A stretch of DNA of 21,544 nucleotides, from IMG/VR virus record IMGVR_UViG_2537561688_000020; one strand, written 5' to 3'. Position numbers and translations under genes: made by a program. Position 1 is the first letter of the stretch; each line of letters starts with the position of its first letter. The notes beneath the pieces are model-generated. The model searched no databases and was not told the origin of the DNA. It saw only the letters and a program-made list of their open reading frames with translations. Source of the DNA: a virus. Lineage: Duplodnaviria > Heunggongvirae > Uroviricota > Caudoviricetes. Shown one piece after another: positions 1 through 3,372 of this stretch.

Positions 1-90
1 TTGCCTCCCCCCCGTTGATGGGTAAAATAGCCGCAATTTTTCGTTTTCAACAAGCGCGGCGCGATGCCGCTTACTCAAGAAGAAAGAATT

Positions 91-165
91 ATGACGTTGT
101 CTCCTTATTTGCAAGAGGTGGCGAAGCGCCGCACTTTTGCCATTATTTCTCACCCCAATAATTAA
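91..165 (+). pseudogene. prfC: Truncated 5' fragment of peptide chain release factor 3 gene (prfC) ending in non-native codons; prophage left attachment junction
   Basis: Translation of 91-165 is [24 protein letters not shown]. The first 22 residues match the N-terminus of RF3 as I recall it ([28 protein letters not shown]), then the GTP-binding P-loop is replaced by NN-stop. A tyrosine integrase starts 220 bp downstream. Junction lies near 153-158. Confidence 0.65.
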
Positions 166-385
166 GTCTAAATTAAAGCTCTTTTACTTTTTCAAAGTCC
201 TTTCAGTTAATTGATGTTTGGTTTTATAAGTCATTTGAATACAGTTAGTTATGTGGCTTCTTTAATTGAAAATTCTTTCATGTAACTTTAAATCGATCAG
301 GTTGCTTTCATCAAAAATCTGTACATATTTTTGTACATAATGTACAAAGCAGTAGAGGTGTTTTGCGATTTGTACAAGGTGAGTA

Positions 386-1624
386 ATGGCGCTGTCTGAT
401 GCGTGGTTGCGTTCAGTCGTTGGAAAGGAACGTGATAAGGTTTTGGTTAAATCCGATCGTGATGGTCTGTCTGTCAGAGTATCACCGAAAGGTCGCGTAG
501 TGTTCCAATATCGTTATCAATGGGCAGGGAAAGGTGAGCGCCTTGATATCGGAACTTACCCGGCAACTGGATTAAAAGAGGCCAGAGAAGAAGTTATCCG
601 TCTCCGTGGTGAACTCGAGTCAAACCGCAATCCACGATTAGTCAAGCAGGCTGAAAAACGAAAAGCTACTGAAGCCATGACGGTAGAGTCTGTGATCCGT
701 GCCTGGTATGAAGCATATTGTGTAAAAAATAAAAAAGGTTCTGAACAGATACTCCGCTCGTTTGAGCTGCACCTGTTCTCTAAAATCGGGAATATCCCTC
801 ACGATGCAGCTACATTGCATGATTGGTTAGAAGTCCTAGAGCCTCTTAGCACCAAGACTCCAGCAATAGTAGACCGATTGCTAATTAACGCAAAGCAGGC
901 TCATGTCTGGGCGTATAAGAGAAAGCTCATTGAAACTCGCCCACTGTCGGATATCACGGGTAAAGATATGGATATCCGTAAAGGTCAGAAAAAACGGTTT
1001 CTGACACATGATGAAATTAGCATCCTTTATGCTGCGATCGATGGTTCTCGAATGGTTCCTAAATACCGAGCCTTCATTAAACTATTGCTGCATTTTGGTT
1101 GCCGTAGTTCAGAGCTAATTACTGCTAGGGTGGATGATTTTGATTTCATAAATAAGGTATGGACTGTACCACCAGAACGACATAAGACTGGGGACATAAC
1201 AGGCGAACCGCTAAAGCGGCCCATTATTGAACCGGTTGAAGAGCTTATAAAATACGTTATCTCTATGAACAACGGTTCCGATATGCTTTTTACTAAGGAA
1301 GGAAGCAGGGAGCCAGTTGGTCGGACATCATTGCAGTCGCTGCCTTACAATTTAATGCAGTTCGCATGGCGACGTTTGGGGTATCAATTTCCTCATTGGT
1401 CTCTTCATGATTTGAGACGAACAGCACGAACAAACTTTTCTGATCTTACTGCGCCTCATATTGCTGAAATAATGCTCGGTCATAAACTGCCAGGGGTATG
1501 GCAAGTTTATGATAAGAGCGATTATCTAGAAGAACAGCGTAAAGCCTATCAGGCATGGTGGGATAGGGTTGAATCGATTCTTACTTACACTAATTTAGGT
1601 TCCAACAGACAGCCTATTGAATAA
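386..1624 (+). CDS. int: Phage tyrosine integrase (P4-type, N-terminal arm-binding domain)
   Basis: 412-aa ORF. N-terminal arm-binding-like region (LSVRVSPKGRVVFQYRYQWAGKGERLDIGTYP). C-terminal catalytic signatures HDLRRTARTNF and a downstream Tyr (VWQVYDKSDY). Sits next to the att-like prfC fragment. Confidence 0.9.
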   Translation: MALSDAWLRSVVGKERDKVLVKSDRDGLSVRVSPKGRVVFQYRYQWAGKGERLDIGTYPATGLKEAREEVIRLRGELESNRNPRLVKQAEKRKATEAMTVESVIRAWYEAYCVKNKKGSEQILRSFELHLFSKIGNIPHDAATLHDWLEVLEPLSTKTPAIVDRLLINAKQAHVWAYKRKLIETRPLSDITGKDMDIRKGQKKRFLTHDEISILYAAIDGSRMVPKYRAFIKLLLHFGCRSSELITARVDDFDFINKVWTVPPERHKTGDITGEPLKRPIIEPVEELIKYVISMNNGSDMLFTKEGSREPVGRTSLQSLPYNLMQFAWRRLGYQFPHWSLHDLRRTARTNFSDLTAPHIAEIMLGHKLPGVWQVYDKSDYLEEQRKAYQAWWDRVESILTYTNLGSNRQPIE

Positions 1625-1776: not shown

Positions 1777-3372
1777 TTATGGCTGAGACTCTGGTTTAGC
1801 AATCTCGTTTATAAATTTCTTAGCTACAACAGTCTCATACTTTCTATAATCATCAAGATATTGAACATCTATATGATTTTTGTAGCGAGCATTAAATTTA
1901 TTTGCAGCCCCTGTTTTATCATCTTTACGTTCATCCGTTGGTCTGAAAAATTTATGGTAGCGGCGGGGTGATACCCCCTCAAAATCACAAAATATTACTT
2001 TGGAAGATTCTTCGTTCTTTGTTATTGCATCATTATGCAGATCAAGAGCAAGGCTTTTATCAAATGGCTCTATATATACTACTTTTTTTATTCCAGATGC
2101 GACAATATGCCTTGCACAGTTGTGGCAGGGGTAGGTTGTCGTAAAAAGAATTTTATCTTTAGTATCGCCGTTTTGTTTTCTAGCCATTGATGTAATGACG
2201 TCCATTTCAGCATGAATTGATCTGGAGTACTCCATTACACTTGATATTTTGCTGTCTTTGTAAATGCCTTCTGCAATATTATCTAATTTGTTTAGAAGTC
2301 GTGTTATATTAATATCGGCAACAGTTTGTCCTGCGGAAATACCTAATACACTTCTTACTTCGGTTGATAATATGCTTTTTATACGGTCTTTAATTTTTAG
2401 CTTGTTTGCATCATTATAACACTTACCACTTTTGTGAACGCATCGATGATCGTTATCAAAATCATCACTGCTATACAACCCGCCACCAGCTTTAGGTACG
2501 TCGTTCTTACCCACGGCAAGCAAATTCCCTTCATCATCAAACAGTGCAGCCCCTACTTGACGTGATAAACAAGCTGATTGTAATGATGTTGAAAAGGCAG
2601 CATACATACCTTTCTCGTTAAAAGTTGGTGTTAAACCATTTTTGCCATGAATAAGACCGAAAAACCGATCAATCTTCTTCTTTAATTCACTTTTTTGGCT
2701 GAAGTTATTTTTAATAAAAAAATCTGAATCAAGAATGGTTTCCCCGGTTCTTTGTCCATACGGATCAGAGGATTTATTATCAATATTGATAATTAAATGA
2801 AGGTCGTCCTTTGCCGATTCGTCAGCAATGAGATTCGGAATTCGGTAATCTAAATCGCGCAAAACTCCTAACAAATAGAAATTATGCTGATATATAACTC
2901 TGAATAACTCTATTTCTTCCGGCCTTTTGAATTGATCAATGATGAAGACAGTACCTTTATATTCATCATTATTATAATCAATATTCTTTTTCGCTGTTGC
3001 GATTGCTGCAATAGCAGCTTCTGCAAGCAACTCATTTTTTTCGTAATGTTTACGAAGTTTATTGGCAATATCCTGGAGTTTTAAATGTCTATTAACTTGT
3101 GTGCTTTCGGATACCTTCAGTGCTGCTGGCTCAAAATATAATGGGTCTTCCATAAGCGCACTTATGCGGATGTGTACAACATTATCCCCCCATTCTTTGG
3201 ATATCTCTTCGATAATTTTGTTTATCGTTCTCATGCCACATCCAACATATCCACACAATCCAAGATAAATATCTTTTGATTGTCGTGAATTCACAATCTC
3301 AAGTGATGATGCCGATGTTGAGCCTTTTTTTTCATTCAGCTTTTGTGGAGTTTTTTTTGCTGCTTCAGCCAT
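1777..3372 (-). CDS. dcdV: DcdV-like anti-phage deoxycytidylate (dCTP/dCMP) deaminase: N-terminal P-loop-like domain fused to C-terminal zinc CDA-fold deaminase
   Basis: 531-aa ORF. C-terminal zinc-deaminase signature: CLSRQVGAALF, then HAE (H387/E389), then PCHNC (C416/C419) and GIKKVVY, as in dCMP deaminases. N-terminal glycine-rich P-loop-like stretch GLCGYVGCGMRT. About 32% GC in a sampled stretch versus about 60% in the replication genes. Int-proximal cargo position. Confidence 0.7.
   Translation of the reverse strand: MAEAAKKTPQKLNEKKGSTSASSLEIVNSRQSKDIYLGLCGYVGCGMRTINKIIEEISKEWGDNVVHIRISALMEDPLYFEPAALKVSESTQVNRHLKLQDIANKLRKHYEKNELLAEAAIAAIATAKKNIDYNNDEYKGTVFIIDQFKRPEEIELFRVIYQHNFYLLGVLRDLDYRIPNLIADESAKDDLHLIINIDNKSSDPYGQRTGETILDSDFFIKNNFSQKSELKKKIDRFFGLIHGKNGLTPTFNEKGMYAAFSTSLQSACLSRQVGAALFDDEGNLLAVGKNDVPKAGGGLYSSDDFDNDHRCVHKSGKCYNDANKLKIKDRIKSILSTEVRSVLGISAGQTVADINITRLLNKLDNIAEGIYKDSKISSVMEYSRSIHAEMDVITSMARKQNGDTKDKILFTTTYPCHNCARHIVASGIKKVVYIEPFDKSLALDLHNDAITKNEESSKVIFCDFEGVSPRRYHKFFRPTDERKDDKTGAANKFNARYKNHIDVQYLDDYRKYETVVAKKFINEIAKPESQP

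Follow-up and report, generated by a model that had tools for sequence, protein, structure and literature searches.

Phage DNA joined to the displaced head of prfC: a very probable attL of a lambdoid prophage at a catalogued integration site

Introduction

The 5' end of prfC, the gene for RF3, is a described target of site-specific integration. SXT/R391 elements insert there (Hochhut & Waldor 1999), and so do Stx1a and Stx2c prophages (Ogura 2007; CC119 and O103 surveys). For an Stx1 phage at prfC the N-terminus of RF3 was found to be altered, and expression of the hybrid RF3 was left open (Ogura 2007, PMC2323221). The integrase of the cdtI phage and IntSXT have been placed together in one "SXT cluster" that inserts at prfC (Smyshlyaev 2021, PMC8138268), and membership in the SXT/R391 group itself is marked by a nearly identical integrase, with 99% identity in the cited examples (PMC2791158). 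prfC has also been listed among genes disrupted by prophages (Bobay 2013).

The junction described here belongs to this already known and frequent kind, at the catalogued site of Stx and Cdt phages and of SXT/R391 ICEs. It occupies positions 1–385 of the stretch of DNA that was analysed in full (21,544 nt, called the window below). We compare it with its far end, with the attachment sites of related phages and with other members of the integrase family.

Results

Alignment to K-12 placed the host/phage boundary at base 155/156, with identity collapsing from base 156 on. Up to that point the window is 100% identical to K-12 (0 mismatches) and consists of the yjjG-prfC spacer followed by the first 65 nt of prfC; in E. 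coli Ec-U11 the stop codon of yjjG is seen immediately ahead of window base 1. The codon for Pro-22 is a hybrid, in which CC is core sequence and the closing C (position 156) phage sequence; the host codon is CCG. The core encodes Ile-Ile-Ser-His-Pro, directly before the P-loop (Table 1). The stub formed at the junction was labelled a partial pseudogene by PGAP in Ec-U11. It is of the RF3 type (TFAIISHP) and not of the LepA type (NFSIIAHID), which sets the target apart from lepA. We assign positions 1–385 with high confidence to the attL of a lambdoid prophage, whose SXT-cluster tyrosine integrase used codons 18 to 22 of prfC.

Table 1. Features of the junction and of the recombination module, in window coordinates
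Feature	Position	Strand	Basis
Host yjjG-prfC intergenic DNA with native prfC ribosome-binding region	1–90	+	K-12 identity
Promoter-like site TTGCCT-16-TAAAAT	1–28		9/12 match, promoter scan
Displaced prfC head: 22 RF3 codons, Asn-Asn, stop; 24-residue stub ORF	91–165	+	Translation; K-12 RF3 N-terminus
Candidate core-type Int sites CATTATT (141–147) and inverted AATAATT (157–163), 9-bp spacer TCTCACCCC	141–163	.	Sequence reading
Core ATTATTTCTCACCC, common to attL and attR	142–155	.	Four-way attB/attL/attR/attP comparison
Phage P' arm of attL	156–385	.	Joins the P arm without a break in the genomes of phages Ayreon and cdtI
Four TGTACA repeats (starts 320, 332, 341, 371), candidate arm-type sites	320–376	.	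Motif count
Tyrosine integrase (Int), 412 aa, P4/SXT-type architecture	386–1624	+	Pfam Arm-DNA-bind_3, Phage_int_M, Phage_integrase
Excisionase (Xis), 64 aa	3913–4107	-	phrog_1553, E=7.7e-36

The far end was viewed in the genome of Ec-U11, a stand-in that differs from the window by 4 mismatches over its 21,544 nt. At attR of Ec-U11 an uninterrupted prfC of 528 codons was found, the first 21 of which are supplied by the phage and are followed by DAGKTT. The replacement N-terminus is in frame and comes from the element, as in integrations that restore the gene at its 5' end, such as those of SXT at prfC and of IMEVchUSA3 at dusA. In the four-way comparison ATTATTTCTCACCC was the sole sequence common to attL and attR; left of the core, attR consists of phage DNA that specifies the same peptide with synonymous codons (AAA AGA AGA ACC TTT GCA versus AAG CGC CGC ACT TTT GCC). 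Strand exchange must have taken place within the core.

The attP rebuilt from the DNA left of the core at attR, the core and the DNA right of it at attL is contiguous and colinear across the core in both Ayreon (476 bp, 94.1%) and cdtI (562 bp, 94.8%). Each of these two attP regions holds a mini-ORF ending in ...ISHPNN*, with the in-frame head conserved. attP carries a decoy prfC head, with upstream DNA and a start codon of its own, 21 codons and then Asn-Asn-stop, and integration swaps the heads by recombination in the 14-bp core. At attL the host promoter and 22 host codons become joined to the phage Asn-Asn-stop, giving the stub observed, and at attR the phage head comes to stand in frame with the remaining prfC, so that the 528-codon RF3 frame is kept.

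What a preliminary description had proposed from the letters of the window was confirmed by these comparisons. It had read 22 RF3 residues followed by two phage-derived codons and a stop; translation and the K-12 RF3 N-terminus agree on the residues, and the mini-ORFs of Ayreon and cdtI bear out the phage origin of the Asn-Asn-stop. [quoted passage not shown] The rest of prfC, expected at the far end, was found there in Ec-U11 with an intact frame restored by the phage head. The integrase is indeed transcribed away from the junction, its reading frame and the stub sharing one strand.

Two further observations concern the DNA left of the core. The attP of Ayreon (1237–1270 of the extracted locus) has TTTGCC just left of the core where the window prophage and cdtI have TTTGCA, and through this C-for-A change its match to E. 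coli attB is 20 bp long instead of 14 bp. The head supplied by the phage (28532–28594 of the Ec-U11 locus extract) resembles RF3 heads of Pseudomonas (MTxQAAEVAKRR...) in a 16-residue pattern, the native E. coli head being LQEVAKRR; the Pseudomonas-like stretch is too short for its origin to be called.

Int of the window is 95–98% identical to the integrases of cdtI, Ayreon, 2H10, PhiR63_1 and Stx1a/Stx2c phages, 47% identical to that of Gifsy-1 and 38% identical to that of R997. Xis gave, besides its main match, weak matches to HTH_17 and Xis_Gifsy_1. The tyrosine integrase next to the junction is orthologous to those of phages known to use prfC, and an excisionase accompanies it. The motif TGTACA is present four times within 57 bp just upstream of int, the other six copies being scattered elsewhere in the 21.5-kb window; the P arm at attR has three further copies. 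Most members of the family have the motif shortly before int as well, and R997 has it in both arms. We take these repeats to be putative arm-type sites at which the Arm-DNA-bind_3 domain of Int would bind.

Around the core, attP reads AATTATT-TCTCACCCC-AATAATT, a perfect 7-bp inverted repeat about a 9-bp spacer. Across the junctions of the integrase family 9 nt was the commonest spacing for the best inverted match; this match (at least 4 of 6 positions) fell at the 9-nt spacing in 19 of the 36 prfC-type and 9 of the 12 lepA-type junctions. CAYCC is invariant over the 36 prfC-type junctions and is followed by N-R-A-Y. In the mechanism that we propose, Int would bind the TGTACA sites of both arms and the inverted ATTATT/AATAAT core sites, crossover would occur within the spacer, and Xis would direct excision.

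Right of the junction the gene order is integrase, anti-phage dCTP deaminase, excisionase and YfdP-S-type early genes, followed by a CI-like LexA-family repressor, a Cro-like gene, RusA and an antiterminator, and finally by a DNA methyltransferase, a lysis cassette and the terminase. The gene that parts xis from int (1777–3372, minus strand) codes for a 531-aa protein with a cytidine/dCMP-deaminase domain, named anti-phage dCTP deaminase by PGAP. In Gifsy-1 and R997 a small convergent gene, annotated as hypothetical or DNA-binding, adjoins int with no cargo gene between. Since both are without such intervening cargo, the deaminase gene appears to be a defence gene that has entered the recombination module.

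The prophage of Ec-U11 is about 31 kb long and is without portal, capsid, tail-tube, tail-shaft and tape-measure genes; in the locus extract (27008–39400) the terminase is followed by a small DUF6148 gene and then by a tail-tip gene that is without its N-terminus. This near-identical prophage is probably defective. Because its counterpart has only this length and no portal, capsid or tail-shaft genes, the element in the window may likewise be a defective prophage, able at most to excise. A further-reaching reading, in which the element is a decayed and immobile remnant and the junction the fossil of an old integration instead of a working attL, we hold to be possible but tentative. It draws on the way in which the Ec-U11 terminase runs straight into the truncated tail-tip gene, with portal, capsid and tail genes absent. 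However, the loss of morphogenesis genes does not block excision, and nothing is missing from Int, Xis, the two arms, the core or the TGTACA repeats, all of them nearly identical to their counterparts in Ayreon and cdtI. Moreover, decay would alter only the present competence of the element, not the identity of the junction as attL.

The consequence for prfC was considered at both ends. At attR the phage head retains the conserved stretch, and the changes are confined to the residues before it. The same N-terminal stretch of RF3 varies freely in length and sequence among the stubs of 37 other loci; as the replaced residues vary naturally in this way, the change of the RF3 head is probably tolerated. 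The hybrid RF3 would be functional and would be expressed from phage-borne signals. The consensus scan yielded no sigma-70-like promoter on the prfC strand ahead of the hybrid gene, and the weak candidates picked out by eye are CATAAT and TACAAT, 19 nt and about 50 nt upstream of the hybrid ATG, respectively. Two LexA-box-like sequences of the form CTG-N10-CAG, CTGTGTTTGTATACAG and CTGTATGAATAAACAG, are located in the P arm beside attR, at about 28750–28800 of the Ec-U11 locus extract, with a DinI-like gene on one side and the prfC head supplied by the phage on the other. The region that would have to drive the hybrid prfC thus adjoins SOS-regulated DNA.

That the insertion plainly inactivates prfC and the lysogen lives without RF3 is improbable. 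Such an outcome would be compatible with the non-essential nature of prfC (PMC2323221), with its listing as disrupted by Bobay 2013 and with the failure to predict a strong promoter upstream of the hybrid gene. It is opposed by the reading frame of 528 codons, which is uninterrupted at attR and keeps the conserved stretch, by the conservation of the in-frame head in phage genomes and by the analogous head that the R997 ICE brings with it. Simple gene disruption was rejected on account of this intact hybrid frame, which also leads us to contest the label "disrupted" given by Bobay 2013.

At attL no terminator was predicted in the P' arm, between the stub and int, and the RNA fold of positions 150–400 is no stabler than that of shuffled sequence (z = -0.15). 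A structured RNA or attenuator in this arm was dropped as a candidate on the same two grounds. With neither a predicted terminator nor an unusual RNA structure in between, transcription from the stranded prfC promoter may continue into int, and to judge from the sequence there is a possibility that this promoter drives int in lysogens.

An SXT/R391-type conjugative element in place of a phage is scarcely conceivable as the source of the insertion, even if the 14-bp prfC site and the arm motif are the same as in R997. The 38% identity of Int to R997 Int falls outside the near identity that marks SXT/R391 elements, and the strand of int relative to attL is opposite to that in R997. The window holds lambdoid CI/Cro-like, antiterminator, lysis and terminase genes, and the gene content of window and Ec-U11 counterpart is one of lambdoid regulatory, lysis, terminase and tail-fibre genes instead of a conjugative-transfer set. 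This gene content of the window refutes an SXT/R391 identity.

The attL junction was detected in 699 of 5,426 complete E. coli genomes and the attR hybrid in 692, that is in about 13%. A chance match is ruled out by this number, and an assembly chimera, in favour of which nothing was found, can be dismissed as next to impossible, as the attL/attR pair recurs in these independent complete genomes. In the attR rows among the matches listed, PGAP names the gene prfC. [quoted passage not shown] Some E. coli genomes have two to three places with the junction.

Species-representative genomes were scanned with an alignment of 18 integrases, which gave 80 loci. A prfC stub followed by a few residues and a stop was found about 130–240 nt upstream of int in 36 or 37 of the 80 loci, the count depending on the script; these are from Escherichia, Pantoea, Xenorhabdus, Serratia, Pseudomonas, Acinetobacter, Methylomonas, Burkholderiaceae and other Proteobacteria. 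A LepA stub (MKNIRNFSIIAHID...), as judged by comparison with K-12 lepA, was present in 12 loci, and in 30 or 31 neither a prfC nor a lepA stub was found upstream of int. The integrases of the stub-less loci are 44–51% identical, and many adjoin AT-rich DNA with TAATCAT-like repeats.

The lepA type is represented by Gifsy-1, whose target is the 5' end of lepA, the gene for EF4 and a GTPase gene paralogous to prfC. The annotated att of Gifsy-1, TTCGATCATTGCTCACATCGA, spans the lepA codons for Ser-Ile-Ile-Ala-His-Ile-Asp, which are homologous to those for Ile-Ile-Ser-His-Pro in prfC. In Gifsy-1 and its relatives about 210–225 nt separate the core from int downstream, and int is directed away from the core, as in the window; the stub ends in ...IIAHIDN-stop, and the arm motif is TGGACA/TGTCCA, in contrast to TGTACA in the window prophage.

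A neighbour-joining tree was built from 80 integrases, namely those of 78 of the 80 fetched loci, Int of the window and Int of Gifsy-1. The prfC-type integrases are widespread and paraphyletic in this tree. The lepA type arises as the Gifsy-1 group, with TGGACA arms, and again in Alkanindiges, where it is nested among prfC-type integrases and has retained TGTACA arms. Because the tree is of the neighbour-joining type without support values, the number of target switches read from it is provisional. On balance we favour the view that one integrase family recognises the DNA for Ile-Ile-x-His before the P-loop of translational GTPase genes and has moved between prfC and lepA at least two times.

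In a Rheinheimera MAG contig (CAYTIQ010000001.1) two integrases of the family lie about 49 kb apart (14782–23990 and 64188–73396). The prfC stubs that precede them differ in their heads, MASAQFLEEVNKRR... and MINPEFLNEINKRR..., respectively. The arrangement suggests a tandem of two elements at prfC, in which the second stub would be the head that the first element brought as a replacement.

Discussion

The short reading frame at the left end of the window is a displaced gene head, and the chief use of recognising it as such is correct annotation at a catalogued hotspot. The frame of prfC is intact in such lysogens, and the gene should be counted neither among disrupted genes nor among those absent from the core genome, contrary to the label "disrupted" given in at least one survey (Bobay 2013). 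For the window itself the junction is a routine prophage boundary of little consequence. The family-level picture is of wider interest: the target belongs to the most highly conserved coding sequences, which may explain the spread of such elements across Proteobacteria, and the family offers a natural system for the retargeting of tyrosine integrases between paralogous sites. This side result on prfC and lepA may be less known. A search for literature linking the two genes as integrase targets found none, and only Bobay 2013 surfaced.

Among described systems, the lambdoid cdtI (Asakura 2007), Ayreon and 2H10 phages and the Stx1a/Stx2c prophages are closest to the window prophage, with the same type of Int. 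Ayreon and cdtI have a colinear attP at 94–95% identity and the same decoy head with Asn-Asn-stop, and the prfC Stx prophages share both the site and the change of the RF3 N-terminus. The cargo differs: the window prophage carries the anti-phage dCTP deaminase gene by int and, unlike the cdtI and Stx phages, no cdt or stx within the window.

R997 of the SXT/R391 group shares the site. Its record starts with ATTATTTCCCACCC, so that its core is at the same prfC position as ATTATTTCTCACCC of the window, and it has TGTACA pairs in both arms, like the candidate arm sites of the window prophage, and a replacement RF3 head of its own, analogous to the one supplied by the phage. Its Int has a homologous full-length architecture, in keeping with the published "SXT cluster". 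However, R997 is a conjugative element, its int is transcribed toward attL with xis between, the reverse of the orientation that int has in the window, and its stub ends in ...ISHP-stop and not in Asn-Asn-stop. R997 is filed in PLSDB as a circular plasmid (NZ_KY433363.1, "plasmid pR997"), and joining the end of this record to its start gives the pair of Ile codons twice over (ATCATC + ATTATT), which seems to reflect its construction from attL and attR.

Elements specific for dusA (Farrugia 2015; IMEVchUSA3) use a target gene other than prfC. For these, expression of the hybrid gene was shown, a lacZ fusion having been made for dusA (PMC8409611), whereas for the prophage described here it is the reading frame of the hybrid prfC that was seen to be intact.
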